The notes beneath the pieces were generated by a model that ran no database searches, had not been told where the DNA came from, and saw nothing but the letters and a program-made list of their open reading frames with translations. A stretch of 64,000 nucleotides of DNA from Lobosporangium transversale (taxonomy: Eukaryota), in assembly GCF_002105155.1 (NCBI RefSeq), contig NW_019028981.1, positions 1,302,001 to 1,366,000 on the forward strand. Direction: 5' to 3'. The translations under genes and the position numbers were made by a program. Every line of letters starts with the position of its first letter. Positions within the stretch are counted from its first letter, which is position 1. Positions 296 to 54,489 of the stretch are shown piece after piece.

Positions 296-1236
296 ATGTC
301 CTCATCCTCTGAGACCCTCGCCATCTTTGGAGCCACTGGTCAACAAGGAGGATCTGTTATTAACTATGTCCTCAATCATCCGGAGCTGTCCAAGCAATTC
401 GTGATTCGAGCTGTGACTCGCAATCCCTCCAAACCAGCCGCCCAAGTCTTGCAACAGCAAGGTGTTGAGGTCGTCAAAGGAGATCTGTATGATAAAGATC
501 GCTCAAGCATGCTCTCAGAGGTGTGCACACTATCTTTGGCCTAACTTTCACGAGTTTTGACGACAGCCTCTATGCTAAAGAAATCATTCAAGGCAAGAAT
601 TTAGCGGACGCAGCTGTCGCCGTAGCTGTCCAGTATATCATTTTTAGCACTGTGCAGCACGCAGGTGAAGTCTCTAGTGGCAAGCATTCTCACGTCCATG
701 CTTTCAACGCCAAGGCCAACATCGAGAAATACATTCGCTCTCTCCCCATCAAGAGCGCCTTTTTTGGGCCAAGCTTCTTCTATCAAGACTTTGCCAGCAC
801 ATTTTTTGTCCCTCAACGCCAAGACAATGGGACCTTTACGATATTCAATGTAGTCTCTCCTCAGAGCGTATTTGAGTTTTTTGATCCTGTTGCTGACACA
901 GGCAAATTTGTGGGTGCTATTCTTGCAGAACCGGACAAATTTGAAGGTGAAACCTTATATGCAGCAGCAACCTTTTGCTCATTTGAGGAAGCAGCAGAGA
1001 TGATCAGTAAATCGACAGGCAAGACTGTCAAGTATAAGCAGGTATCTGCTGATGAGTTTTATCAAGCCATGCCAGCTCTTAGCAGTATCAACGTTCACCT
1101 TATGCTTTTCGTGGAAGAGTTTGGTTTTTTGGGTCCAAAGGGAAAGGAGCTTGCCGAACGGTCTACCAAGAACATCCATGCGAAATTGACGACATTTGAA
1201 GAGTACCTCCAGAAGAACCCTCTCGATCTTCAGTGA
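296..1236 (+). pseudogene. NmrA/HSCARG-like NAD(P)-binding protein, copy 1 (single frameshift)
   Basis: GATGQQG Rossmann motif and VTRNP. ORFs 296..544 and 523..1236 join into a full paralog if one base is restored near 498 (gataaaga-tcgctc vs gatagagaatcgctc in copies 5/6). Could be a real lesion or a sequencing indel. Confidence 0.8.
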
Positions 1237-3089
1237 GCAATAAAAATGTATGCACGAAATTTGGAACACAAGTGTTCCAGGTTTTTATGGGTACTAAATG
1301 CATGCCACACCATATGATAAGTGTGATTTTAAAACTAGCACCAGGTAGGAAACCAGCACTGATTCTGTAGATGTATTCGAAAAACGGCAAAAACCTCCTA
1401 ATATAAATTGAAGCGCGAATCGACTTCCTTTAAGTAAGGAGTCTCATAGCCAGTTATTGAGAAAAACCTTTTTATTTGCAAATCGAAGAAAACATTTATA
1501 ATTTGTATGGTCACGATGCGAACCATGGAAGCTCAGTGCCAGTTTCCACCTTCTTTGAAGAAATAAATTAAATGCATGCAGGAGGCTTGTATCCATTCTG
1601 GCAAATCTTTTAGGGGTGTCCCATTGGTATAAAGGCTAATAAATGTCAACAATACCTTGTTTTCTCCTTTTTCCTTACATCATTGTCTAATAGCGAGCCC
1701 TCATCGAATCCTTCATCAAAAACAGAATATTTCCAGATGGTTTGCGGGGTACAGTGTGCTTTTTACCACACATTGGCTCTTTTTTCTTTTAATGCTTTAC
1801 ACCTGTTTAAGCCCTGGTAGGTTTCTACAAGCGATTTTATAACCATGCATCAACAACGGTTATAAAATTATAAAACTATAAAACCTCGCTTGCAAGCGTC
1901 GAAAGCTCCAATATGTTTTTGAAGCTACTATTGCAAGCAGCTATAGGGAGCCTAGCTTGATTAATACATTTGAAATGCGCTTGTCAGAGGGTTGACCTAT
2001 TTCAAACGTACAGATGGACATTTCATTTGCTTCTCTCAAATAACCAAAAAAAATGTCTAAGTTTGAAACCCCTAATAATATTTGATAACCGTAACGTGCA
2101 TAAGCAATGCATGACTAACGCAGAACGTTATGGAGCAACTTATAGCTAAACAGGTTTGCTGGATTGATTAGTCAATCCAGCTCAACGATGTACTATTATA
2201 AGGAAAGGCAGAGCTATGAGGAATGATTCAATGCTTACTGCATGTAAACAGCCTCGACCCAAACCCTGCTAAAAACATCTTACCAAGGACCTTTAGTAAT
2301 CCTACACATGCCCAATTGCACGTTCCCTGCTTTACGAAGACGACAATGAGTGTCTCATGTTTATTATCCGAATTAGCGACCTGTTCTGTCCCACCTCTTT
2401 TCTCCCCTCGTGGTTTTTTGCTTTCTTATCTTTCCCATCGAAAGGTGTAGACCAGAGACAGCTGTGGCTGGGATTCATTTTTCTTTGTTTCTATGGTTTT
2501 AGTTGGATCCCCAAGTGGAAAGTAAAGAGAGATAACGCAGTAAGAGTTGCTGTTCTTGGTTCGTGGTAGATATATCTGGCAACCATCGATCTAATACGAA
2601 AGGAAATAATTCGCGAAGAGCGTTTCATCTATGAATGGGCTCTGACTTTTTTTCAGTCGTGGTTCATATTGTTTTAGTCACGTGTAGAGGGTTCGCCACC
2701 AACTATTTAACGAGCAACAGCTCAGGAAAATCCGGCTCCTTGTTCCTTATTTTTACACAAGAGCCATTTGAGTACTGACTGTTCTCGTCCAGTCTTAGAG
2801 TAGTGTGTGTGTTCTTTTATTGTGTTAGAATTATTTTATCTATCTGCAGCTGGAAGTGACCGGCTTCATAATCCACCAAAACGACCGCATCTGCCCCTAA
2901 ATTTTGCAACAATATGATGCACTCAGCATGTGCACCGCACTGAAATAAAATAAAAAATAAAAAATAAAATCTAGATATCTACCTACGTTTATCGTTTTCC
3001 TTCTCAATTAAATAGCGCCTACAAGTTGCACTATCTACATGTACCTTATTAATAAAAACAATATTCTGTGATCTCATCACCCCCAAAGA

Positions 3090-4034
3090 ATGAAGCTAGC
3101 GCCTAAAATATTGGTAGTATTTGGAGCTACTGGTCGACAAGGAGGATCTGTCGTCAACTATGTCCTCAATCATCCAGAACTATCCAGGCAATACAAGATT
3201 CGAGCAGTTACACGCGTCCCACCCAAACCAGCCGCGCAAGCCTTGCAGGAACGAGGAGTCGAGGTTGTCAAAGCGGATCTATTTGACAAAAAGTCGATCG
3301 ACGCTGCTCTCAGTGGTGCCCATACTGTCTTTGCGAATATTGCCACCAGCTTTGATGAGAGTGTCTATCCTAAAGAAATGCTTCAAGGCAAGAATTTAGC
3401 GGATGCGGCCGTCGCCGCAGGAGTCCAGTATATCATCTATAGTACTTTACCACATACACGCGAAGTCAGCGATGGCAAACATGCTCATGCGGATGCTTTT
3501 AACGTCAAAGCCGACATTGAGGGGTACATTCGGTCTCTCCCCATCAAGAGCGCCATTTTCGCACCAAGCATGTTTTATCAAGACTTTTATCAAATGTTTT
3601 TTGTTCCTAAACGCCAAGATGACGGGACCTTTACCATATTCAGTGTTGTCTCTCCCGACAGTGGGATTTATTGTTTTGATGTTGTTGGTGACACAGGCAA
3701 GTTTGTGGGCGCTATTCTCGCAGAACCGGACAAGTTTAAGGGTAAAACCTTGTGTGCAGGAGCAGACTTTTGTACGCATGAGGAAATAGCAGAGATGATC
3801 AGTAAAGCGACAGGCAAGACGGTTAGGTACAAGCAAGTGTCTGTGGATGAGTTTGATCATATCATACCAAGCACTCATAGCAGAATTACCGCTGACGTTA
3901 TGCTTTTCCTGGAGGAACACGGCTACTTTGGTCCAGAGGCGAAGGAGCGTGTCGCTTGGTCTACCAATCACATCCATGATAAGCTAACCACATTTGAAGA
4001 GTTCCTCCAGAAGAACCCTCTTCATCTGGAATGA
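3090..4034 (+). CDS. NmrA/HSCARG-like NAD(P)-binding protein, copy 2
   Basis: Intact intronless 314-aa ORF with GATGRQG, GKNLADAAVAAGV, DTGKFVGAIL and a KLTTFEEFL C-terminus, typical of the NmrA-like atypical SDR family. Confidence 0.92.
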   Translation: MKLAPKILVVFGATGRQGGSVVNYVLNHPELSRQYKIRAVTRVPPKPAAQALQERGVEVVKADLFDKKSIDAALSGAHTVFANIATSFDESVYPKEMLQGKNLADAAVAAGVQYIIYSTLPHTREVSDGKHAHADAFNVKADIEGYIRSLPIKSAIFAPSMFYQDFYQMFFVPKRQDDGTFTIFSVVSPDSGIYCFDVVGDTGKFVGAILAEPDKFKGKTLCAGADFCTHEEIAEMISKATGKTVRYKQVSVDEFDHIIPSTHSRITADVMLFLEEHGYFGPEAKERVAWSTNHIHDKLTTFEEFLQKNPLHLE

Positions 4035-4943
4035 GCATTCATGAGAAAATCCATTGATGTGTGTTCAAAACAAACTTCTCAGGATACAAATAGTATAAGC
4101 GAGTTCCAGTGCTGGTGAGATTCAAGTTAAGCATAAGCCCCAGATGGTGGATACATATTTTCAGACGAGTAAAATATGCATAGGTTCGAATGGCTTGCAA
4201 GCTGATAGTTTATTACTATTCTTCAACACTTATTAGTAATATGAACAGAAAAGCATACTATTCAAGGAAGCTGACCTTCGATATATCATCGTCCATTCTC
4301 AAAACGAAGATATAGATCATGCTTATTTATTCTGTAGCTTCAACCATCTAAATGGGGAAAAATATAAACCTATGCAATGCATAACTAAGATAGTAAACTA
4401 ACAATGTTTTAGCCTATTCAGATTTTCCAAAGCGATTAGGCATTATCAGCTCTACGATGCTGTCACTATAAGGAAAAGCAGTATCGTGAGGAAAGATCTG
4501 TTAATTGTCATATTGTCACAAAGGCCTGCCGCCTATGAGGTAAAAAAAATAAAAAGCAGAATATGAGGTCACTCTGTTTATGTCCGATTGAAAACTCCCT
4601 GAATTCGATGCTCACTGATCTGACGCGGACAAAAAAAAAAATAAAAATCAGCGGGAGCTTTACATCCCTGAATGTGGTTCTGACTTTTTGCATTTGTCAT
4701 GCGCCTTGACATGTCCTCCAACTCGTTTGGTCAGTGATTCATATATTTTCTATTCAAAAAACGATGATTGAATTGATTTGGTGGCTGATTTTGACATTTC
4801 ACCCTCCGTGACGAACTGGTCCCAAGGAATATAATTGGCTCCCAATTCAATCAAAAAATATGTGAATCGCTGACCAAATGGGACGGAGTATACTGTATCA
4901 ATGGTGAGAGGTGTGCACTGCACTGAAAAAAAAGAAAAAAAAA

Positions 4944-4959
4944 TATTTAAACAGATGCC
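4944..4959 (+). promoter_or_regulatory. Conserved TATA-like core promoter motif of the NmrA-like paralogs (TATTTAAAyrGrTGcC)
   Basis: Same motif at 238, 4944, 7556, 14500 and 17244, each 58-155 bp upstream of a paralog ATG. Confidence 0.55.
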
Positions 4960-5056
4960 AGTGTTCACCACTTTCCCCTTCACAACTCAAGTTTTCCAAT
5001 ACTTTTATAGCTCTATCGCCTTCTCAAAAAAAAAAATAAAAAATAAAAAATAAAAA

Positions 5057-5998
5057 ATGAAGCCATCACCTAAAATCCTCGCCGTATTTGGAGCTACTGG
5101 TCGGCAAGGAGGATCTGTTGTCGACTATGTCCTCAGCCATCCAGAGCTATCCAAGCAATTCAAGATCCGAGCTGTGACGCGCGTCCCTTCAAAGCCAGCT
5201 GCTCAAGCCTTGCAGGAGCGAGGAGTCGAGGTCGTTAAAGGAGATCTGTTTGATAAAGAGTCGATCGATGCTGCTCTCAGAGGGGCACATACTGTCTTTG
5301 GGATTATCCCAACGAATTTTGATGACAGCGTCTGTACTAAAGAAGCCATTCAAGGCAAGGTGTTGGTAGACGCAGTCGTCACTGCAGGCGTCCAGTATAT
5401 CATCTTTAGCACTTTACGGCATGCACATGATACCTCCAATGGCAAACATACTGACGCCCATGCTCTCAACGCCAAAGGCGAGGTTGAGAAATACATCCGC
5501 TCTCTCCCCATCAAGAGCGCCTTTTTCGCACCAAGCATATTTTATCAAGACTTTTCCAACATCTTCTTTGTTCCTAAACTTCAAAGCGATGGAACCTTCA
5601 CGATATTTGGTGTGAACTCTCCTCAGGGTGTGTTTGAGTTTTTCGATGTTAGAGACACAGGCAAATTTGTGGGTGCTATCCTTGCAGAGCCGGAGAAGTT
5701 TGAGGGCAAAACCTTGTGTGCAGCAGCAACACTGTGCTCTTTTGAAGAAGCAGCAGAGATGATCAGTAGAGCAACAGGCAAGACTGTCAAGTATAAGCAG
5801 CTATCTGTGGATGAGTTTGATCGTGTTATGCCAACGACTCACAGCAGAATCACCGCCTACAGTATGCTTTACTTGGAGGAATTCGGCTTCTTTGGTCCAG
5901 AAGGAAAGGAGCTTATTGAATGGTCAACCAAAAATATACATGACAAGTTAACCACGCTTGAAGAGTTCCTTCAAAAGGACCCTCCCCATCTGCAGTGA
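5057..5998 (+). CDS. NmrA/HSCARG-like NAD(P)-binding protein, copy 3
   Basis: Intact 313-aa ORF with the same motifs. Confidence 0.92.
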   Translation: MKPSPKILAVFGATGRQGGSVVDYVLSHPELSKQFKIRAVTRVPSKPAAQALQERGVEVVKGDLFDKESIDAALRGAHTVFGIIPTNFDDSVCTKEAIQGKVLVDAVVTAGVQYIIFSTLRHAHDTSNGKHTDAHALNAKGEVEKYIRSLPIKSAFFAPSIFYQDFSNIFFVPKLQSDGTFTIFGVNSPQGVFEFFDVRDTGKFVGAILAEPEKFEGKTLCAAATLCSFEEAAEMISRATGKTVKYKQLSVDEFDRVMPTTHSRITAYSMLYLEEFGFFGPEGKELIEWSTKNIHDKLTTLEEFLQKDPPHLQ

Positions 5999-7668
5999 TC
6001 TATCAATATGTGCAATCAAAGTGACCAAAATAAAGAGACTGAGCCAATGATATACTGCTTCTATTGAATAATTTGTCCATGTCTATGAAGTGAATCACTG
6101 ATGTGTATTCAAAACAAAGTTCGCGGGATACAAGCAGCATAAAAAGTGCAGTAAACCTCTGGGCCATATGAAGCGCGAGCTCTAGTGCTACTGATCCAAT
6201 GTAAATAAAGCTCAAGCTACAGTGAGCGAGGGCTTTCTAGAAGAATAGAAATAGTGTCTGCGGCAGAGAGTCATCGACAAATATTTTTTAAAATCTGTCG
6301 ATGGATCAAAAACACTAATTGTCTGAATTGAGAGTATTTATCCAATTTAAAAATCTTGAAAACATTTTTGTTGACAACTTTCTGGTAAGGACTACTCTAT
6401 GCATAACCTGAAATGACTTTCGAGATGAAATGAAGGATTATATATTATATACTATTCCTCTATCTTTGATGAATAAAAAAAAAAGTTGACTTTAAGTATC
6501 TGTTTCTATTATTTTTATTTTTATTATCATTTTTGTTTCTATATTCATCCTTATACTCATTTTTATTTTATCTCAATTTTTATTTTTGTTTTTCTTTTTG
6601 CAAAATTGATCAGAGCAACAGAACAGCCGTCTTCTACGTACCCCTTCGTTTTATACTTGCTGAAAGAGTTGGCCTTTAGCTACAATACATAGGTCGGCTA
6701 CAGGGGATCCGTCATGAAACGAGGTTTTAAGCTCCCAGTGTCATTTTTTTTGGCATAGTCTCCGCCCCTTTTTTAGAATGCAACGTACTCATGCATACGG
6801 CGGAGCATTTCACACTTTTTCTCAGAGTCTAGGGATTTCCAAGCGTTCATTGGATTCACCATTGGATATAAAATACTTCGGGGGACTTTTAGTGGGCTTT
6901 TCACCACACAACCGCCTATTCTTCTTGAGTACTTGATACTTATTTTAAAATGGGGAGCTCAGATAGTTTCAAAGAGCTGAATTTATGTTCATGCAACAAC
7001 CACCATCATCAGCTCTCGCTTTCAAGTGTTGAAAGCAGCAAGAGGCTTTTGAAATAAGTAAGGAGAAAATGTGATGGGGATTTTACTCAGGACTGCCGCA
7101 CTTCTCAAGATGGGTTGGAGTGGATCCATGGCTCTGGTAGGCATAATCTAGTTGGGCCCGAGGTACATGCACCTTCTTTTGAAAGGGCACTTTTTTGCGT
7201 CTTTTTTTTCTTTCTTCAGGCAGGTCCATTTAGAAGGTCCTTCACCCTTTATGAATGTATGCAACACATTACTAAGATAGTAAGCTGACGGAGTTTTTAG
7301 CCTATTAAGGTTTTCCAAAGCGATTAGGAAAAGCAGTATTGTGAGGAAAGATTTTTTAATTGTCACATTGTCACACAAGCCTTGCTACCGCCTTATGAGG
7401 TCTTTATGTCTTATTGAAAACTCTGGACAAAAAAAATAAAAATCAGCGGAAGCTTTACATGAATGTGATTCTGACTTTTTGCATTTGTCATGCGCCTTGA
7501 CATACTGTATCAATGGTGAGAGGTGTGCACTGCACTGAAAAAAAAGAAAAAAAAATATTTAAACAGATGCCAGTGTTCACCTCTTTCCCCTTCACAACTC
7601 AAGTTTTCCAATACTTTTATAGCTCTATCGCCTTCTCAAAAAAAAAAATAAAAAATAAAAAATAAAAA

Positions 7669-8610
7669 ATGAAGCCATCACCTAAAATCCTCGCCGTATT
7701 TGGAGCTACTGGTCGGCAAGGAGGATCTGTTGTCGACTATGTCCTCAGCCATCCAGAGCTATCCAAGCAATTCAAGATCCGAGCTGTGACGCGCGTCCCT
7801 TCAAAGCCAGCTGCTCAAGCCTTGCAGGAGCGAGGAGTCGAGGTCGTTAAAGGAGATCTGTTTGATAAAGAGTCGATCGATGCTGCTCTCAGAGGGGCAC
7901 ATACTGTCTTTGGGATTATCCCAACGAATTTTGATGATAGCTTATATGTTGTAGAAGATCTTCTAGGCAAGATGTTAGCAGATGCAGTCGTCGCCTCTGG
8001 CGCCCAGTATTTTATTTTCAGCACTTTATGGCATGCACATGATACCTCCAATGGCAAACATACTGACGCCCATGCTTTCAACGCTAAAGGCGACATTGAG
8101 AAATACATCCGCTCTCTCCCCATCAAGAGCGCCTTTTTTGCGCCGAGCGTCTTTTATCAAGACTTTTCCAACATCTTCTTTGTTCCTAAACGCCAAGATG
8201 ATGGAACCTTTGCGATATTCAGTGTGACCTCTCCTCAGAGTGTGTTTGAGTTTTTCGATGTTAGAGACACAGGCAAATTTGTGGGTGCTATCCTTGCAGA
8301 GCCGGAGAAGTTTGAGGGCAAAACCTTGTGTGCAGCAGCAACACTGTGCTCTTTTGAAGAAGCAGCAGAGATGATCAGTAGAGCAACAGGCAAGACTGTC
8401 AAGTATAAGCAGCTATCTGTGGATGAGTTTGATCGTGTTATGCCAACGACTCACAGCAGAACCACCGCTTACGGCATGCTTTACTTGGAGGAATTCGGCT
8501 TCTTTGGTCCAGAAGGAAAGGAGCTTATTGAATGGTCAACCAAAAATATACATGACAAGTTAACCACGCTTGAAGAGTTCCTTCAAAAGGGCCCTCCCTA
8601 TCTGCAGTGA
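7669..8610 (+). CDS. NmrA/HSCARG-like NAD(P)-binding protein, copy 4
   Basis: Intact 313-aa ORF. Nearly identical to copy 3 at both ends and in ~170 bp upstream. Confidence 0.92.
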   Translation: MKPSPKILAVFGATGRQGGSVVDYVLSHPELSKQFKIRAVTRVPSKPAAQALQERGVEVVKGDLFDKESIDAALRGAHTVFGIIPTNFDDSLYVVEDLLGKMLADAVVASGAQYFIFSTLWHAHDTSNGKHTDAHAFNAKGDIEKYIRSLPIKSAFFAPSVFYQDFSNIFFVPKRQDDGTFAIFSVTSPQSVFEFFDVRDTGKFVGAILAEPEKFEGKTLCAAATLCSFEEAAEMISRATGKTVKYKQLSVDEFDRVMPTTHSRTTAYGMLYLEEFGFFGPEGKELIEWSTKNIHDKLTTLEEFLQKGPPYLQ

Positions 8611-10089
8611 TCTATCAATATGTGCAATCAAAGCACTCAAGATAAAGAAGTCGAGCCAATGATATACTATGTCCTTGAAATGAATCATTGGTGTATGCTC
8701 AAAGCAAGTTTATGTAGCAAGAGTACGTCCTTTCTAAATGAGTAAAACATGCATAAATTCAAATGGTTCATCTTCCCAAGATCAAATGAAGGGGTTGTTT
8801 AATACTCTTCTATGGTTGCATAAAAAAGAGTTGACTATTAGGTTCATGCATCCCCTTTTTTTCTTCTAGCAAATAAACAAATTGAATGGAGCAACAAAAC
8901 AGCCATCCACGATGTTACTCTTTCGTTTTTGCTTGCTGAAATATCTGATCTTAAGCTACAAAGCATAGGCACTTTCAGGGTGGTCCGAGTTTTTAAGTCC
9001 TTGCCAGAAAGTCAATATTTTCATTGAATAAAGTAATTCAAATTTTAATTCAGTTTATGACTTTTAGGCGAGGAGTCGATATCTTTTTTTTTTTTTTATT
9101 TTTTTTATTTTTTTCCCAGACCAAACCCATTGCTGCATGTTCTTATACAGTAAGATCTTGAAAGCCTTTTACATATCGATAGTGCGCTTTTCCCACGACT
9201 CAGGGACTTTCAAACAGAGAAAAGTACCATTGTTCCCCTAATCAGCTGCTTAATATCAAGCACTCATCAGTTTCCTTTTTTTTTTTCCCTTGTATACCTG
9301 ATAATTATTTTTACTTGCCAAGCTCTGCTAGTTTCCTAGAAGCGGCAAGTATGTTCATGCATCAACTACGATTATAAACCCTCGCAGGAAGCAGCCTTAG
9401 GCTTTTGGTGCCACTATTGGAAGCGGTTATGGGGAGTTCAATTCATTCATTACGCGCGTGGAGAGCCTTCCCCTTGATCGGCTTGGCTGCCATGCTTCAA
9501 GACCTGCTGACACCTATCATTGGAATTTCGTGTATACTAACATGCGGTCTCGCACATTCCTTTGGGTTTGAGTTTGGGACACCATTTTGCTGTGCAAATG
9601 TTTCTTTCAAAGACGATCTAAGCAAGGATATGATGTAGTCTATCCAGTTGTGGCAATCTGTTTAAGAAATGAGCTCAAATGAATCTTTGAATCATGTCAA
9701 AACAGTTTCCTTTGAAGTGAGCTTTTCTTGCTCTCAGGTGTTTTCTTTTCAGCATACTAATGAACTTTGATGATCCTCAGCACGAAAAACGAGAAAATAC
9801 AGCCAGAAAGTTGACGACTAATATTTTAAAATACTTCCTTTGATTGTATATCTATGCAAGTATGCCCAGATCGCATAGGGATTGCGAAGGTTGGAATTAT
9901 AGGCAGCACTACGAGGAGTGATGGTAAACTTATCACATTGTTCCGGAAAAAGTAGCCTTCTCCTTACGCTCATTTGTCTTTTTAGTTAGATAAACAATTA
10001 CACAAACTCAAGTCATATCATTGGGGTATTGCTTTGCGGATGAAAGGCTGTATTGAGGTGAAAGCGGGGTTTGTTATGAATCTCCTGTA

Positions 10090-10231
10090 CACCAAAATTT
10101 TGTTTATGCGGACGATTTACTAAGGAAAACGTCTGTATATTTTTAAGGTTCCAATGAATTGGGGAAGTATTCTTAACTGTACAAAATATGTAGGCACATG
10201 TGACATTGCATTCACGGGTCCCCATAAATGC
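10090..10231 (+). repeat. Left terminal inverted repeat (~142 bp)
   Basis: Manual alignment to the reverse complement of 14289-14429 shows about 8 substitutions and 3 single-base indels. Confidence 0.92.
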
Positions 10232-10326
10232 ACATTCCCCGGACGAAAGCTTGGACAAAAGGCCGGACGCAATTACACTTACTCATCTCTTCATTACTTT
10301 CGCAATCAAGATTTCATTTTATCGAA

Positions 10327-12213
10327 ATGGCAATTTCAAAGCGCTCCGCAGCATCGGTCCCCAAGAATCAATTGCCAAAGAAGAAATATACAATGTCCGA
10401 GATAAAGTCAGCTGAAAAATTGCGGAAGGACAGGTACAACGACCTTTTAAACTGTGCAAGGGATCGCAATATGACAATTCCACTTATTCTGCCTACAGCT
10501 GACAACCATGGCACTCCAATGGCAAAGGTGTGTCTGACTCTAAAGAAAAAAGTAGAGCTCCTTGATATATATGATTATCTCTTGCTCCGACGAAAGGATA
10601 TTAAACAAAAAGTCTCCTTAAAAAATTTCGGCAACCTCATTGGATATGACATTCCGAAGAGTAGTTTTCACGATATCGTCAAAAAAAAAGATGAACTTCG
10701 AGCACAGGCTCCATTGTATCCAGAGGGTGCGTGTTATATCGTTCAGCGAAAGAATCTACAGCTTGAGACAGTGCTTTTAAAATGGCTAGAGGATCAGCGT
10801 ACACGACTCAATCCAATTAACAAAAGGATGATACAAGATGCGGCGAAAACCACTTATGTTATCCTCGCTGGCCTGAAAGATCCTGAAGGTGACCCGAGCA
10901 CCAGCGGCATGATGCCTTCTTTTTCAGTTTCCTGGTTTAATGCTTTCAAGAAGCGTCACAACATAACGTATTGTCAGTTACGGGGAGAAGCAGGATCGGT
11001 TGACCTTGAAGCGATTGAGCCTGAGCTCGTGGCCATCCGGAGTCTCTGTTCCCAATACACACCTGACAACATATATAACTGTGATGAGACAGGATTCTAT
11101 CTCAAGGAGTTGGACCACAAGTCCTACACAACGCAGGTCTCGGAGGCTGGAGTCAAGGCAAATAAGAATTGTCGTGTTACTATCCTCTTTTGCATCAATG
11201 CTTCTGGCACTTCGCTCCTCAAGGCAGAGTCCATGGATGCATTGAAGCCACTCGTTATTGGTAAGGAGTTTAACATTTTATTGAAGGTATATTTAGGCGT
11301 TGACTTGAAATACTATATATTAAATATCATATTTCATATATTAGGTAAAAACATCGCCCAAGGTATTGACATCGAGTCAGGAAAAAAAATGATTGTGAGA
11401 AAATCTGAATCAGGGTGGATGACAAACAATATCTTCGTGAATTGGTTGAAAACATTCGATGATCAGCTTACAGAGCCAAGCTTACTTCTTCTGGACTCTG
11501 CTCCACAGCACAACAATATTGATATGCGCAATCCTTCCACCAATGAACCGTGGAAGCATCTCCGCATTCAACGACTCCCGGTGAACTCGACATCTGTTAC
11601 TCAGCCCCTTGATGCAGGCGTTATCAGTGTGTTCAAGCGAGCATTTCTAGAGATACTTACCCACGAGTCACATCTCGTCCGAACATTTGATATGACGAAG
11701 GCTATCTCTAATGGACACGCGTGGTCGATAATCCCATCAGCATGGAACTCCGTTAAAGCGATGACACTAAGGAATTGCTTTGCTAAAACCCCAGTCCTTC
11801 CCGAAGAGATGCGAAAGCACATCAGAGCCATGTCAAGTACCAGTGCAGAGCGATGCCACGAGGTCCAGTACACGCGAAGTCACCTCTATAAGGAGCAGGA
11901 AAGGGCGTACTTCGAGCATTTGATCGCATCAGTGAGTAAAGGGAATGAGTGGGTGCTGGATCGCATTGCGGAGAAAGATGTGCAGGATATTTTGGAAGAG
12001 GAACATGGGTCATGCACTTCTACGGATGGTAACTCTCATGAAATTGTCAATGGAAACTATGAAGCCACTCCACTCTCTATAAACAGTAGTCCGATATCGA
12101 AGGAGTCATTCCACAATTCGATCGATTTATTGACCAAATTGTCTAACGGGCATGATATAAGCAGTCCTGAAGGGATGGAGGCCATATTTGAAAATACAAA
12201 AAAAACAGCATGA
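10327..12213 (+). CDS. pogo/Tigger/CENP-B-like DDD transposase
   Basis: CENP-B-type HTH (LETVLLKWL...FSVSWFNAFKKRHNI), LRGEAGSVD, and catalytic motifs IYNCDETG, LLLDSAPQH and QPLDAGVI. Probable in-frame intron 11261-11344. The ORF is open from 10228, but the ATG at 10327 lies outside the TIR. Confidence 0.92.
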   Translation: MAISKRSAASVPKNQLPKKKYTMSEIKSAEKLRKDRYNDLLNCARDRNMTIPLILPTADNHGTPMAKVCLTLKKKVELLDIYDYLLLRRKDIKQKVSLKNFGNLIGYDIPKSSFHDIVKKKDELRAQAPLYPEGACYIVQRKNLQLETVLLKWLEDQRTRLNPINKRMIQDAAKTTYVILAGLKDPEGDPSTSGMMPSFSVSWFNAFKKRHNITYCQLRGEAGSVDLEAIEPELVAIRSLCSQYTPDNIYNCDETGFYLKELDHKSYTTQVSEAGVKANKNCRVTILFCINASGTSLLKAESMDALKPLVIGKEFNILLKVYLGVDLKYYILNIIFHILGKNIAQGIDIESGKKMIVRKSESGWMTNNIFVNWLKTFDDQLTEPSLLLLDSAPQHNNIDMRNPSTNEPWKHLRIQRLPVNSTSVTQPLDAGVISVFKRAFLEILTHESHLVRTFDMTKAISNGHAWSIIPSAWNSVKAMTLRNCFAKTPVLPEEMRKHIRAMSSTSAERCHEVQYTRSHLYKEQERAYFEHLIASVSKGNEWVLDRIAEKDVQDILEEEHGSCTSTDGNSHEIVNGNYEATPLSINSSPISKESFHNSIDLLTKLSNGHDISSPEGMEAIFENTKKTA

Positions 12214-12350
12214 AAAATGTGCGCCACTTTTTGAGGAGTCTCATAAGAGCTTGTGATAATGTGAATATGGAGCAGACATCTTCATTAAGAGAGACGCAGG
12301 ATGACCCGCAAGACGTATCGACGCTAGAAAATTTCCTGGACAACCCATTT

Positions 12351-14105
12351 TTATAATAAATGCAGTTTGATAATATCTTTTATTTTGGACTGTTTTGTAC
12401 ACTGGATTTTCCAAACCTCTTGTGGCTCAAGGACGTTATCGATGGTTTCCTGCCTCTTGTAGTTCAGGCCACGTCTTGGTATTTCCGCCTCCATCTGTCT
12501 CATTAACCATACAATACGACCAAAAATAGCTTTCGCACTCTCCTCCCAACCGGCGCTCCCATAATCAACCTTAGGAGCCAGTCTCGATACCTTGAATTTC
12601 GGGCAACTTGCCACTGAAGACGCGCATCGAGATCGATCTATACTACATTCCACAAAATACCAGGTCATGGCATCCGTAACGATACCATATGCTTTCATTG
12701 GGTTGGCCTCATCCTCCTCCTTTCCATCGTCGTCGTCTGTACGCTTGCGCTTTCGATTCGTCAATGAGGATTCCAGCTGCACCAGGTTTTGGGCCAAACC
12801 CTTCTTGAAGTCCTCTCGCTTTACCTGTGTGACACCTAGAATGTGGTTCATACCGCCAACGGCTTCGATGGAAAAATCCACCCTTCCATGACCATGTTTA
12901 CCGCGAAGTTCTCTTTGTTGAACAAGTGTTAACGTTTTCTCAAAAAGCAATACAGCCTGTGTGATGTACGAACAAACAAAGGTGGAACAAGTTGCTTCGT
13001 TTGATGGTAAGCGGCTTCCCATTGTTCTTACTCTTGCATCAAGCTCCTCGCACAGCTTCCGCAATGCATCCTGGTTTATGCTCTCTGTCAATATGTTGTC
13101 AAATGATGGCAGATCAGGGATGTCGGGTGCCTCCATGTTCGATATACCGTACAGAGTGTTGACTTCTGCAAGCGTAAAGTCTGTATATTTTTTTGTTGGG
13201 GTCTCCAGCGCCACTACTAGGGTCATTCCACCAGTCTTCCTTTGCTGTCTTAGGATATTTCTAAAGTGATTGTCGTCGGGGACTTCTGAGCGGCCATCCA
13301 CGATTACTGACAGAACAAGATCTCCTTTTCCGTCCTCTCTTTCTGGATATGCACGGAAGATCGCGCCCACAAGCTCTTTCACTGTTGTTTTCTCGACATC
13401 GGCTGTCCAGCGAAAGGACTTGTTCTTGCTTGGCCGTACGATGACGTCTAATACGAAGATACTCTGCACATCCTCCAATTTTTTTTTCTCTTCATGTAAT
13501 TGTTCCTGTAAAGCTTTTTTCTCTTCATGTAGTTGTTCCTGTAAAGCTTTTTTCTCTTCATGTAATTGTCCCTGTAAACCTTTTATCACTTCACGCAACT
13601 GTTCTTGTGATTTTTTCATCTCTTCTTGTAATTTTTTTTTCTCTTCATGTAAATCTTCTACTTGTAATTTATAAGCATGACATAGAGAGTCTTTCAGCAT
13701 ATATATCAAGCTTGTGGAGGCACGCTAAATGCCTTTCTGGCATAGATAGCGATAATGGGACGAACATGGAAAAGCAGTTGACGTACCTTTGGGCTGCTCG
13801 ACGATAATATGGATCGTGGCTTTTGGAGCTCCGTCCTTGAACACATCTTGCAGTGTCTCCATTGAGTGGAGCTGACGCTTGAGATCAATATTACCAGCAA
13901 TGAGCTGGTTGTCTGTGTCCACATTCCAAGGAATCATAGCGCACCAAAGAACAAGTTTGCCAACAATGATTTGTGTGAGGTTGCTGATTAAGCTTTTGAG
14001 ATGACAGACAGTTTTATCGGAGGAAATCTCAACGGCGAATGCTTTTGAGGCAGGGTCACCACTGATTAAACAGAGCAGTTCGAGCGTGGCTGCTGTGGGT
14101 GTCAT
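12351..14105 (-). CDS. Crinkler (CRN)-family effector-like protein: ubiquitin-like header + coiled coil + PD-(D/E)xK REase-like domain
   Basis: Exon 1 (14105-13787) reads LELLCLISGD..AFAVEI..KTVCHLKSLI..LVLW..HIIVEQP, matching the CRN LFLAK/HVLVxxP-type header; GTACGT donor. An in-phase TAG acceptor ends at 13658. Exon 2 (13657-12351) has GRVDFSIE..GVTQVK..GLAQNLVQL, RKRKR and YGIVTDAMTWYF. Confidence 0.8.
13476..13657 (-). repeat. 33-bp tandem repeat encoding LHEEKKALQEQ coiled-coil units
   Basis: About 5 imperfect units (ttctcttcatgta.ttgttcctgtaaagcttt) inside the CRN gene. Confidence 0.85.
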
Positions 14106-14288
14106 TGTTGGGTGTTCAAAGTGAATGGTGGAGAGTGTGAAGAAAAAAGGCTGGTAATAAATATGAGTGCCAAGACACGCTGTGGCTTCGACCTTTTCGT
14201 CCAAGACACATTGTGATTTCGACCTTTTCGTGGGAACTAAGGATGTCTGTCTTTACGTTCTTTATCCGAACTAGCATAGGAAGGATAA

Positions 14289-14429
14289 TGCATTATGGGA
14301 ACCCATAAATGCAATGTCACATGGGCCTATATATTTTGTAAAGTTAAGAATACTCCCCAATTCATTGGAACCTTAAAAATATCCGGACGTTTTCCTTAGT
14401 AAATCGTCCGGATAAACAAAATTTTGGTG
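14289..14429 (-). repeat. Right terminal inverted repeat (~141 bp)
   Basis: Reverse complement of the left TIR, followed by TA. Confidence 0.92.
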
Positions 14430-14649
14430 TACATGATGAGGGCGTCAAAAAAAAAAAAAAAAAAAAAAAAGCTATATGTACACCACAGCACAACAAAAAT
14501 ATTTAAACGGGTGCCACATTCGTCGCTTTCATTCTCCAACCAAGCACGTCTTCAAGTTGTATTATCTTCCTTATTAATAAGAATAAAATCCTTAAAGCCC
14601 TATTACTTCCAAAAAAAAAAAAAAAAAAAAAAAAAAAAGAAAGAAAGAA

Positions 14650-15571
14650 ATGCACCCATCACCTAAAACCCTTGTCGTCTTTGGTGCAACTGGCCAACAA
14701 GGAGGATCTGTTATCAACTTTGTCCTTGATCATCCAGAACTATCTAGCCAATACAAGATTCGAGCTGTGACACGCGTCCCATCGAAGCCAGCTGCTCAAG
14801 CCTTGCAAGAGCGAGGAGTCGAGGTCGTTAAAGCAGATCTGTATGATAGAGAATCGCTCGATAAAGCTCTCAGAGGCGCACATACTGTCTTTGGGATGGT
14901 TACCACGACCTATGATGACAGTATCTACACTAAAGAAATTATCCGAAGCAAGAACTTAGCAGACGCAGCCGTAGCTGCAGGTGTCCAGTATATCATTTAC
15001 AGCAGTTTGCGAAATCTCTGGTGACAAATATATTGAGGTCGACACTTTCAATGTCAAAGCCGACACTGAAAAATACATTCGCTCTCTGCCCATCAAGAGT
15101 GCTTTTTTCTCACCAGCCATGTTTTATCAATGCTTTCACACCTTCTTTTTCCTCACGCGCCAAGATGATGGAACCTATGTGATATTCAATACTGTTCCTC
15201 CTCAGAGTGCGATTGAGTGCTACGATCCTGTTGCTGACACTGGCAAGTTTACAAATGTTATCCTTGCTGAACCGGATAAATTTGAAGGCAAGACTCTGTG
15301 TGCAGCAGCATACTCTTACTCGTTTGAAGATATAGCAGAGCTGATCAGTACAGCATCAGGCAAGACTGTCAAGTATAAGCAGATTTCTGTAGATGAGTAT
15401 GATCGTATGATGCCAGTTCAAAACAGAATTATCGGTGACCTTATGCTTTACGTGTCAGAACATGGTTGCTTTCATCCGAATGAGGAGGAGCATGAATGGG
15501 CGACCAAGCATATCGGCAAGTTGACCACGTTTGAAGAATACCTCCAGAAGAACCCACTCGAGCTGCAGTGA
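14650..15571 (+). pseudogene. NmrA/HSCARG-like copy 5 (11-bp deletion frameshift)
   Basis: ORFs 14650..15024 and 14981..15571. At ~15007-15010 only 4 nt (ttgc) remain where copy 2 has 15 nt (ttaccacatacacgc). Confidence 0.85.
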
Positions 15572-16782
15572 TCAACTAAAGCTAGAATTCGAAATGTAAA
15601 AATCAAATAAAAAGAAGTACAGCACTATTGAACAGGGTATGTGGCACGAGCCATACATAAGTCTTTAGGCCGTTTGGAACACGTATTCCGGCACTAATAG
15701 GGCCCAAGCAAAGGAGTGAATGTCAGACAACGATGAAGGCCTCTTTCTTAAACGAATGTAATAAATAAGGGTCCAAGGTGTATTATCATCCCTCATTTTG
15801 CGTTGAAGAATAAAGAATGGTTCATTATAAGGCATCACTGGAGCTGAGAAGCATTGCATAGAGCGACAAGATTCTGATATCCGCTCGGCATGTGCTGTAC
15901 TTGCTAAAACAACTGACCTCTAACTACAAGAGAGATGCATTTTAATGGAGATTTGTAATAGACTGATGGGGGGATGCAAACTGTAATAGGCAATGGTGAG
16001 GCTTGGGTAGGGTCAAGGATATATATTCAACAAAGTCTAAGCCTGGTCTAACAAGAAAGAGCCTTTTTAACACTGATTGTAACTGCGGTGCGAGCCATGG
16101 AGGATAGATACCAGAGTCTGTCTTCATTTCTGGAACTAAATCGAACACATGCTAAATGGATGATTCTTTAAGGTGTGATCAGACTTTTGCTGGTGTATAT
16201 ATTTTTTTTATTTTTCACCAGCACGTCAGAGCCCATATATTTTTCTTTTTCACTGGTGGAGTTGACTACTGATCTACAGATACCGACGTGAAGTATTCTA
16301 ATACGAGATATCCCAGTGTACCCTTGGTATACTACAACAGGAACCGCTGGCTGTGGGATTTCTTGGGTGGTGTTTGCCACACCGAGAAAAAAAAAAAAAA
16401 AAAAAAAAAAAAAAACATACCAATAATGCAAGATGCGCCACGGACCATGCGATCCATCGATGTCAAAACAGATAAATAATAAGATAAATATTTTAGCATA
16501 TGATGGCTCTCCTATTTACTTGGATGCTTCAATCTGGGAAGCCAAGATACTTTTCTGCAAGCGATTTTTATGTTCATAGCTGCTAGTGTGGCTGCTTAGA
16601 AGGCCGGTAGCAACTTTCGGTGCTTAATAACGGCGCTTAATAGTCGTAGTGGATGCATGGAGAGTCTAGCCCAATCGATGCAGATGCAGATTAGGTGACT
16701 TCTACTTTGCGGGCCTGGCTGTCGCACTACATGCATTACATGCATCTTTCCATATGATTTAACGCGCCATTTCGCACGCCCT

Positions 16783-16813
<31 letters not shown>

Positions 16814-17215
16814 CGTCGGCCTAGTTGACCCCCAACAATGCCCCTTGTTTGAGGCCACCAAAGAGGGATGAGGTTGACGTTCTATTCAATTCATTCAACC
16901 TATTCAAGCGATAGGCTTGACTGGACTCATAAACCTGATGTAACATTGTCTTATCATGTTCTTTGGGAAGGGGGTTTTGTTTTTCTCTCTATCTCAAGTC
17001 CATGCAGAGTTTGTGTAATTCGCAGTAAGGACGCATGACAGAAACAGTAGGTTGATGGAGGTGACTTACTTATATGGGATCGATATCAATTAGGCATTTT
17101 GGCAGATTTGCTATATCAAAACAGGTTGGCGTTTATTTCTTTCCACTTGTGGGGAAGTATGAGCTCAAGAACATCAAAAAGATGACCACAAGTGCTCTAA
17201 TGGTTTACTGAACCA

Positions 17216-17249
<34 letters not shown>

Positions 17250-17366
17250 AATAGATGCCGCTTTTCGCTTTTGTTACCAATTCACGCCTTCGAATTATAT
17301 CATCCTCCTTTCCTCTTTAATAGCAAAAACAAACCTTTACAGTTTTTTAATTCCCTTGCGCTTCCC

Positions 17367-17398
<32 letters not shown>

Positions 17399-17399
<1 letters not shown>

Positions 17400-18337
17400 T
17401 GAAACCACCTAAAACCCTCGTCGTCTTTGGCGCAACCGGCCAACAAGGAGGATCTGTTATCAACTTTGTCCTTGATCATCCAGAACTATCTAGCCAATAC
17501 AAGATTCGAGCTGTGACACGCGTCCCATCGAAGCCAGCTGCTCAAGCCTTGCAAGAGCGAGGAGTCGAGGTCGTTAAAGCAGATCTGTATGATAGAGAAT
17601 CGCTCGATAAAGCTCTCAGAGGCGCACATACTGTCTTTGGGATCACTTGCACAATTTTTGATGACAGTGCTTATGTTAAAGAATACCTTCAAGGCAAGAA
17701 TTTAGCAGATGCGGTTGTTGCCGCAGGAGCCCAGTATTTTATCTACGGTACTGTACGCCATGCAGGTGAAGTCTCCGGTGGCAAACATTCTGCTGTCCAT
17801 GCTTTCGACGTCAAGGCTGACATCGAGAAATACATTCGCACTCTGCCCATCAAGAGTGCTTTTTTCACACCAAGCGTATATATGCAAGACTTTCACAACT
17901 TTTTCTTCACTCCTAAACGCCAAGAGGATGGAACCTATGTGATATTCCAGGTAGTCAAACCTGACAGCGTATTTGAGTTTTTCGATCCTGCTTCTGACAC
18001 CGGTAAATTTGTAGGTGCTATCCTTGCAGAGCCCGACAAGTTTGCAGGCAAAACCTTGTGCGCAGTATCCACCTTTTGCTCATTTAGTGATGTAGCAGAG
18101 ATGATCAGTAAATCAACAGGCAAGACTGTCAAGTATAAGCAGGTGTCTTTGGATGAGTATGACCAAATCATGCCAACGAGTCATAGCAGGATCGTTGCTA
18201 ACGTTATGCTTTTCCTGGAGGAACACGGTTACTTTGGTGGTTTAAAGAAGGAGGTCGAATGGTCTACTAGTTGTCATCATGAGAAGTTGACCACATTTGA
18301 GGAGTTCATCGAGAAGAACCCTTTCCATCTGGAGTGA
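17399..18337 (+). CDS. NmrA/HSCARG-like NAD(P)-binding protein, copy 6
   Basis: Intact 312-aa ORF with the same motifs. Confidence 0.92.
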
Positions 18338-52227: not shown

Positions 52228-54489
52228 CTAAAGGGCCAAATCGCTTTGTTTAAGCTCACCAAAGCATATGTGCCTGACTTCCGGATATTCAAGAGCCTTG
52301 AGCTTGTGGTTTGGTAATCCATGTTTCCCGGAAGCACCTTCGCCAAAATCACCCCTTCCACAAATGTAGATAACCTTGAAGTCTTTGCGGAGAATTCCGT
52401 CCTTTTTGACTTCAAATCTCTTCCTGATACCTCTTCCGATCAAAATTGCTTCGTGGAACCCACCAAATGCAGCGTCCAGATATTCCTCGATTTGATTCTT
52501 GGCACCAGGTCCTTTGTCAAAAGCAAGCTCAATCATTGCTGATTCCTTATCATAAGTTTTAAAGTCTCTGACCGACACTTGAATGAACCTGTAGCCTTGG
52601 ATGAAACTAAACCGCTCATAACCTACATAACAACGCACTAGAATACCCATGCCATCTCTACCAAGCATTCTGGGAGGTTTCTGCATTAGTTCGTATCCTG
52701 TGGCTCCCAGATCCACGTCCAATGGATTTTCACCTGCAAGGTTTGTCGTTTGGAGTACCAATCCAGGGCTACGAATAAGTTGCTGAAACAAGACATCCTC
52801 AAATCCTGCGCCATCCAGGTTTTTTCGATACATTTCGGGTAAAGGACATGTTTTGTATAAGTCCAAAAGTGCAGCCTTAGCTGCTGGAGTAGTTGGACTG
52901 TACGATAATGAATCTTTATACTCGTGTCCATATACTAATCCATAGTCAAGGAAGCAGCAATCAAATGACGCATGAGGTCGATATTTTCCAGGCAGGAAAA
53001 TCTTTGCAAGCGCGAGGCGGGATCCATCCTGTGAACTAGGTGGAAGCTTCCTGTAATGGTTTTCTATAGCGGAATAAAGTTCATCACGTCGGCGATTGTT
53101 GAATAGCTGTAGTTTCTCCTTAACATCCTCAACCGTGAGGGGGCCCGCTCCAATCTCTTTTTTCTTTGTTTGTAACATTTCAATCTCTTTTATAAAATTA
53201 ACGAACTCGCGTGGCATATAGTTGGGGATGCTTGCGATTCCACCTTTTAGCAAATATATAGGATTGCGAACAGATATATCAAGCCTCCTTACAGTTGTTT
53301 CCAGTAACTTATTGAATACTTGTAGCGACAACGGACCAACATGAATGAGGCATTCTGGTGCATCTAACTTAAGATAAGATCTCTCAAGTGCTGCATTATT
53401 TATGAAGACTGCTCGCGCATTTGCCTCGTTCCAAAAGCTGAAAGAGTCTAAAAGCTCCAAATTCAGAAGCCATGAGGCTGCAGCAAGCTTGCCTTCTGAG
53501 GACATAGCACCGTGTTTGTCGACAACGAGGAGTGTTTCTCGACCCTTTTACTGGAGTAGGCGACCCAATATATAGCCGGCGCATGTAACTGGAACAAGAT
53601 TCACAATAGGCTGCAATGTGCCTCCGAAATCAACCAGTTCAGAGAGCTCCCGTGATCTTAGAATGTCTTGATTGAGGGCCAGAAGCGTTGACAGATTGCG
53701 GTTGATGCCTGCTCTGAGGTTTCAGTATTACTAGGGGCTTCCGCGTCAGCAATGTAAAGGACTGGCCATCCATGCGCGTATGCCTTGGCGGCAAGGAACC
53801 ATGCGATATGCGACTTTTCGACACCCGTCGGACCCGATATGCATTTTTGTTTTGGACGTCGACTTTTACTCGTAAGCTCTTTCCATAAATCCATCATCTG
53901 CTCAGTCACAAAGAATTCATGGCCCTGATATCCCTCCCCAAAGGACTTTGGGGTTTGACCAAGATTCATTGCTGTAATTTGATCTCCAGCTTCTACCTTC
54001 AATAGCGTAGAGAAATCCGTGCGCGGCTTTGGTTTGAAGTCGTTGCTCTCGAGCATAGCTCTTATAATACGAGGCTGCGGCACGTTAACAATAATGTGAA
54101 TGCAACCATTTGCTGCACCATCTGGAAAATAAGTGTGGAGCTTTTCACGCTCCTCACCGAGCAACACAAGCGATTTTTCAGGTAGGTTCTCCAATTCTTC
54201 CTCCTTTACACCGCCAGGGACAAGGCTGAGAGAGATATCCTTCGGCTTGGTGGAAGGCGATGTGGTAATTTTGGGATAGATGGCATTCTTTAGGAGACCG
54301 ACTATTTTGCTGGAAAGGATCTTTACTGGGAAAGATGTTATTTCCCCTCCGACAATGCAATTTAGCTCCAGCCATTTGGGTGAAGGAGAGGCTCCTGTCT
54401 CTAAAGCCGAGATGGCGCGCTTTTTTTTTGTTTTTGGGGTTGATGCTCGGTTTGTCCGTTTTGTTTATTGGGTGTGGAGATCTTCCCAT
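52228..54489 (-). pseudogene. Decayed Crinkler gene: CRN header + P-loop NTPase + REase-like domain
   Basis: Across frames: LELNCIVGGEITSFPVKI..IVGLLKNAI..HIIVNVP; Walker A-like ISGPTGVEKS; Walker B-like LLVVDKHG; C-terminal RFSFIQGYRFIQVSV. Frameshifts near 54425, ~54305 and ~53682, and an in-frame TAA at 53550-53548. Confidence 0.78.

Follow-up and report, generated by a model that had tools for sequence, protein, structure and literature searches.

A 64,000-nt stretch of the Lobosporangium transversale genome (assembly GCF_002105155.1, contig NW_019028981.1, positions 1,302,001–1,366,000 of the forward strand; referred to here as the window) includes a pogo-type DNA transposon which encloses two genes only, a transposase on the forward strand and a convergent Crinkler (CRN) gene on the reverse strand. 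The element spans window positions 10090–14429 (4,340 bp) and is bounded by terminal inverted repeats (TIRs) which align over 143 bases with 92.3% identity (the local alignment score was 236 compared with a maximum of 30 over 200 shuffles), with a TA dinucleotide on each side. Both the ends and the two enclosed genes had been proposed in an original prediction made from the sequence alone, and the features listed in Table 1 are in agreement with this. The flanks around the insertion are near-palindromic (TCCTG-TA on the left and TA-CATGA on the right), and within the window there are no further copies of the element and no significant matches to the TIR profile described below beyond the element's own two TIRs.

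Table 1. Features of the CRN-bearing pogo element, in window coordinates.
Feature	Position	Strand	Basis
TA target-site duplication, left	10088..10089	.	Sequence
Left TIR, 143 bp	10090..10232	+	Sequence; matched by profile built on TIRs of relatives outside the window, E 2e-4
pogo transposase gene, HTH_Tnp_Tc5 + DDE_1, DD38D, 601 aa after splicing	10327..12213	+	Pfam, motifs, RNA contig
Transposase intron, 84 nt, GT..AG, in frame, no stop	11261..11344	+	Spliced out in RNA run X5; retained in DNA runs
CRN exon 2: coiled coil (11-aa repeats), second beta-grasp (PB1-like) domain, restriction endonuclease (REase)-fold domain with RKRKR loop, Gln in (D/E)xK motif	12351..13657	-	Sequence, alignment, predicted model
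CRN intron, 129 nt, GT..AG	13658..13786	-	Skipped in RNA run X5; same junction in protein P0093
CRN exon 1: Crinkler ubiquitin-like header	13787..14105	-	Pfam PF20147, E 1.1e-15
Two direct repeats of 31 bp (87%), upstream of CRN gene	14170..14231	.	Stretch differs in second copy
Right TIR	14289..14429	-	Sequence; matched by profile built on TIRs of relatives outside the window, E 4e-9
TA target-site duplication, right	14430..14431	.	Sequence

The transposase gene opens with an ATG at 10327 and closes with a stop codon at 12211–12213, and its product matches HTH_Tnp_Tc5 (1e-9) and DDE_1 (1e-19) above the Pfam cut-offs. This bears out the DDD transposase that had been predicted, with the exception that the CENP-B_N domain itself was not matched. 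All three aspartates of the triad are present in the motifs CDETG, LLDSA and QPLDA, with a D2–D3 spacing of 38 residues. The nearest named homologues are Mortierellaceae proteins (about 34–66% identity), and named matches bear TIGD6 or Tigger-like labels. We also note that after a run of eight A residues, another frame of window positions 12198–12357 (forward strand) has a weak similarity (E 0.07, one relative) to the longer C-terminal tails found in related transposases, and ends beside the CRN stop codon.

Members of the pogo superfamily of IS630-Tc1-mariner transposons have TIRs and a TA (or TAA/TAAA) duplication, encode DD29-56D transposases, and are 1.2–5.2 kb in length (Gao et al. 2020, PMC7386202). 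The combination of DD38D, HTH_Tnp_Tc5 and DDE_1 domains, TIRs and a TA duplication places the element in this superfamily, with both the DD spacing and the length falling in the ranges described. It departs from these descriptions in two respects, as the open reading frames reported there encode transposases only, whereas here a second, unrelated and full gene is enclosed, and the 143-bp TIRs exceed the type 3 TIRs of about 100 bp. Eight supplements of the same paper contained no entry for Mortierella, Lobosporangium or Mucoromycota.

The CRN gene runs from an ATG at 14105 to a stop codon at 12353–12351 and is interrupted by a single intron. The Crinkler header scores 58.7 bits with PF20147 (cut-off 24.6), the coiled coil of the second exon is encoded by a 33-nt repeat (11 residues), and the RKRKR motif is conserved in the family alignment, so that the spliced gene, header, coiled coil and basic motif originally described are all confirmed by Pfam, the repeat, the alignment and RNA contigs. 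RKRKR is the sole feature seen in the CRN protein which may relate to delivery or nuclear action. Pfam found nothing above cut-off in the C-terminal region, and a structure was predicted for the 353 residues following the coiled-coil repeat (pLDDT 80). This model contains a beta-grasp domain resembling PB1 (with a modest Z of about 7) and an REase fold similar to those of BpuSI (Z 13.6, root-mean-square deviation (rmsd) 3.1, 152 aligned residues), DrdV (Z 11.1, rmsd 2.9, 140 aligned) and HsdR (Z 9.5, rmsd 3.7, 125 aligned). Two mitoribosomal proteins, which share the REase fold, gave the highest structural scores (Z 15.1 and 14.2). The PD-(D/E)xK-like domain of the original prediction is therefore retained as a predicted fold, and the motif itself only in part: the helix-1 Glu, the Asp and the Lys are kept, and Gln stands at the first position of (D/E)xK, compared with Glu in 29 of 33 homologues.

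Among the 50 CRN matches listed, all of the named ones are Mortierellaceae proteins and most are 44–57% identical, apart from P0093, a protein labelled Lobosporangium transversale which is 98% identical. As the named homologues are all from this family of fungi, we regard the CRN gene as a member of a widespread host gene family, and it nests among Mortierellaceae homologues in a tree (this was based on a quick, unfinished search and serves to show nesting only). The CRN core shares 57% identity with 28 homologues, compared with an average of 74.5% among those 28 (five divergent rows were excluded from this count).

Four of seven listed sequencing runs were examined as read contigs, three of which are DNA from three studies (X1, X2 and X4) and one is an RNA run by guessed label (X5). 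The X5 contigs skip the transposase and CRN introns exactly, with canonical ends and no differences from the window (for the transposase a single contig spans 10312–12365), and both introns are unskipped in the three DNA runs. Both genes are thus transcribed and spliced in one study, although the RNA contigs give neither level, strand nor transcript ends.

The distribution of the CRN gene among relatives of the element was investigated by a scan of metagenomes, which provided ten loci with related transposases (53–77% identity). None of the ten has a CRN match, and it should be noted that six of these (L001, L002 and L007–L010, including the closest relative, L001, at 77%) are too short at the 3' side to be informative. 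Of the others, L006 is complete: it measures 2.6 kb, encodes the transposase alone, and has 124-bp TIRs and a TA on each side. In L003 a TIR follows shortly after the transposase, L005 carries an inverted repeat, and the L004 sequence ends 138 bases past the transposase stop codon with no cargo seen. The TIRs of L003, L005 and L006 are homologous to those of the element, and a profile built only from TIRs outside the window recovers both TIRs of the element (Table 1), which means that these ends belong to this transposase family. The CRN cassette (about 1.9 kb) is thus an addition between the 3' end of the transposase and the right TIR, and the carriage of a CRN gene does not appear to be a trait of this family. 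As to faithful and repeated transposition of cargo as a family trait, in the sense of PMC11162782, two loaded copies are indicated in one species (see below), against the ten loci here without a CRN match, six of which are short. At the end of the L003 element (positions 1560–1595) there is also a 36-bp palindrome centred on TA, as if two TIR ends stood back to back.

One further association was found in Gamsiella, where gene model P0010 joins the first exon of a transposase of the same family to the CRN beta-grasp and REase region of another subfamily. It is the only transposase–CRN fusion among 276 proteins compared, and may be a gene-model artefact as none of the best 150 of 528 proteins from a representative search spans both the transposase and CRN halves.

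As the CRN gene keeps its intron, it was probably captured from the host at the level of DNA. One route would be a template switch in the course of gap repair; in another, a transposase copy and a short TIR derivative situated on the far side of a CRN gene would have been mobilised together. The two routes cannot be distinguished here, as neither a remnant of an inner TIR nor a significant duplication at the junctions was found: the best direct match between the transposase and CRN junctions is 9 bp and was equalled by 44 of 500 shuffles, and the inverted match was reached by 370 of 500. Helitrons leave no target duplication, and the cassette might instead be a separate mobile unit of this or another kind which inserted into the 3' end of the pogo element. 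In Phytophthora, helitron-rich regions have been associated with CRN genes (PMC5289972), which would fit such an origin, but neither an inner inverted repeat nor a separate boundary or duplication of the CRN gene's own was found, the retained intron shows that the gene is not a retrocopy, and the read depths given below argue against extra near-identical free copies; we consider this origin very improbable.

The DNA runs indicate that a second copy of the whole TIR–transposase–CRN–TIR unit, about 99% identical to the first, is present at another locus, so that not all other copies lack the CRN gene. Several observations agree in this. Relative to the flanks, the depth of interior contigs in X1, X2 and X4 is 1.60–1.79x for the transposase and 1.63–2.01x for the CRN gene, and while contig depth is a poor measure of copy number, a two-copy model based on 26 listed sites in 10243–12395 (1.2% divergence) predicts 1.71x. 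In the same runs the long flank contigs have no other letters and single depth, and the interior contigs have many other letters. The 3' end of the CRN gene (12366–12607) is found as two variants, each near single depth (0.88–1.38x in X1 and X2), and an X2 contig of doubled depth (10243–12395) runs from the transposase through into this end. Variant contigs extend into both TIRs (10209–11231 and 13548–14322 in X4, and around 14147–14323 in X1), and P0093 carries changes at CRN sites where X2 and X4 differ. As the depth of the CRN gene is not above that of the transposase, there would be no extra near-identical free CRN copies, as might be expected of a nested unit. Between the two CRN copies we also observed a difference in the coiled-coil repeat region (window positions 13503–13644), where there is a joint from 13542 to 13503 with further changes nearby, and where P0093 differs as well.

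It is possible that the CRN gene was captured once and that the second copy was then made without the transposase, by ectopic recombination or gene conversion between TIR elements or by duplication of a short segment, or that it represents a second haplotype. The site of this copy and the target duplication there are unseen, TIR sequence is abundant in the genome (TIR bins have about 5–9x the flank depth in the three DNA runs), and recombination between TIRs has been proposed for ToxhAT (PMC6737239). On the other hand, neither the doubled depth nor the variant letters extend outside the element, and in the long contigs both flanks have single depth and no variation, which argues against a haplotype or a larger duplication. 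In addition, the left-flank contigs of all three DNA runs stop at 10116, and if these are assumed to be 31-mer contigs, this would fit another TIR end beginning GTA|CACC but would not fit a tandem copy in head-to-tail order. Duplication without the transposase is therefore unlikely in our view, and we return to a second copy produced by transposition.

The same runs also contain derivatives of the element without genes. A joint from 10267 to 14293 recurs in all three at 1.9–2.5x the flank depth and represents an internal deletion that removes both genes, and this, together with the high TIR depth, shows that short non-autonomous TIR copies exist, which would be about 0.33 kb long with both ends complete. 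These gene-less derivatives probably outnumber the full element.

Taken together, we think it probable that this is a pogo cut-and-paste transposon enclosing a spliced CRN gene which was likely captured from the host and likely copied once along with the transposase, with the cargo probably a passenger. After capture, the transposase would have moved the whole unit to produce two copies about 1.2% apart, and the same transposase would also move the gene-less derivatives. The cargo likely contributes nothing to transposition and may have lost nuclease activity. We favour a passenger because related elements move without the CRN gene, the TIRs enclose no antidote gene such as a toxin–antidote or addiction element would be expected to have, the nuclease motif departs from that of the family, the CRN core is further from its homologues (57% identity) than these are from one another (74.5%), and the differences listed between the two copies have synonymous to non-synonymous ratios of 1:6 for the CRN gene and 8:12 for the transposase (these are small and partial counts taken from the 40 best-supported of 155 rows), giving no sign of purifying selection. 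The original prediction that this is a cut-and-paste vehicle for the CRN gene is thus upheld insofar as the reads indicate a second copy with both genes, but a general vehicle is unsupported given the relatives without cargo, and L006 in particular. The toxin or addiction role which had been offered for the cargo is likewise unsupported, with only two full copies indicated in addition to the points above.

Alternatively, the CRN gene might be functional cargo kept by selection, encoding a nuclear DNA-binding protein or nuclease which aids persistence of the element (as a toxin or addiction module, or by relief of silencing) or serves the fungus in conflicts. The frames of both genes are open throughout and their RNAs are correctly spliced, which would be consistent with this, as would an REase fold with the helix-1 Glu, Asp and Lys kept, the conserved RKRKR, the CRN gene in both full copies indicated by the reads, and the precedent of the fish Crinkler-like AACRNL genes, for which silencing relief has been proposed (PMC12957317). 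Against these stand the ten related loci without a CRN match, the departure in the nuclease motif, the 1:6 ratio and the lack of an antidote gene, to which can be added that gene-less derivatives persist without the CRN gene, and we regard functional cargo as quite unlikely.

A number of points weigh against our preferred explanation and should be considered alongside it. Spliced transcripts and open reading frames fit function too, QxK is used by Mrr-type nucleases so that the Gln is no proof of inactivity, and the longer branch of the CRN core could be a genus effect, there being no other CRN of the same type from this species for comparison. The shortness of six of the ten related loci and the partial substitution counts limit the case for a passenger, just as the use of contig depth limits that for a second copy, and X1 is possibly the source sample of the window. 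The flanks and target site of the second copy are unseen, so we infer transposition of the loaded unit rather than observe it, and the empty TGTACA-type site suggested as a check is not among the joints listed for the four runs, where contigs show presence and not absence.

The arrangement can be compared with several known systems. The AACRNL genes are flanked by hAT and mariner TIRs (PMC12957317) and are, like the gene described here, members of the CRN family that were duplicated between the TIRs of a transposon in an organism which is not a pathogen; they differ in that they encode an ADP-ribosyltransferase domain, their header is degenerate, and their flanks are large and either composite or non-autonomous, compared with the intact header, REase fold, compact autonomous pogo element and TA duplication found here. 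ToxhAT is also a fungal TIR-bounded unit enclosing an effector gene, but it is about 14 kb, has a hAT-type name, no target duplication was found for it, its mobility is possibly through recombination, and its toxin function is established (PMC6737239), whereas our element is 4.3 kb, of the pogo type and flanked by a TA duplication, and the function of its cargo is putative. TIR elements capture genes generally (PMC11162782, PMC8232201), and as in Pack-MULEs and Helitron capture, host sequence is found here between transposon ends, though mostly as fragments in those cases and as a whole spliced gene beside an intact transposase in this one.

CRN genes have been linked to helitrons in Phytophthora, and CR proteins occur in free-living eukaryotes (Zhang et al. 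2016, as reviewed in PMC5289972). The protein described here resembles these in having a ubiquitin-like header and an REase-fold C-terminus in a free-living eukaryote, and differs in that it lacks an NTPase or kinase domain, has a coiled coil and second beta-grasp domain between the header and REase domain, and has Gln in the (D/E)xK motif. CRN genes have been proposed to expand with transposons, and the published links considered here are of helitron proximity in Phytophthora or large TIR-flanked blocks in fish (PMC5289972, PMC12957317), and we found no fungal pogo element with CRN cargo in the literature searched (most subscription papers and bioRxiv supplements fell outside it). The loaded element is compact, its ends are precise and bear a target duplication, its transposase is intact, its two genes are spliced and a second loaded copy is indicated, and it makes the duplication of a whole CRN gene by a cut-and-paste element testable. 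A wider claim would be that an active autonomous pogo element in the Mortierellaceae spreads an expressed Crinkler–REase gene as working cargo, making pogo capture a direct engine of CRN expansion, in which case P0010 would represent a second, independent association, and we think this as doubtful as functional cargo itself. The evidence supports pogo capture and duplication of a CRN gene in one species and not a dedicated toxin vehicle, and the capture of the host gene is likely to have been recent and lineage-limited. This would be of smaller significance should the capture prove recent, neutral and limited to one species, all of which seem likely.

The window also contains a second gene with a Crinkler header (52228–54464, reverse strand, Pfam E 8e-11), which is spread over two open reading frames, has a weak P-loop-type match, and has no TIR of the element's family near it. 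To the left of the element, a low-depth RNA contig at 9149–9581 skips 173 nt (GT..AG) in a stretch without a long open reading frame. The element itself is inserted inside a tandem array (496–18337) in which there are at least six NmrA-like genes, with starts at 496, 3072, 5054, 7666, 14650 and 17351, about 220 bp upstream of one of these, and the NmrA-like copy starting at 14650 is broken across two reading frames.

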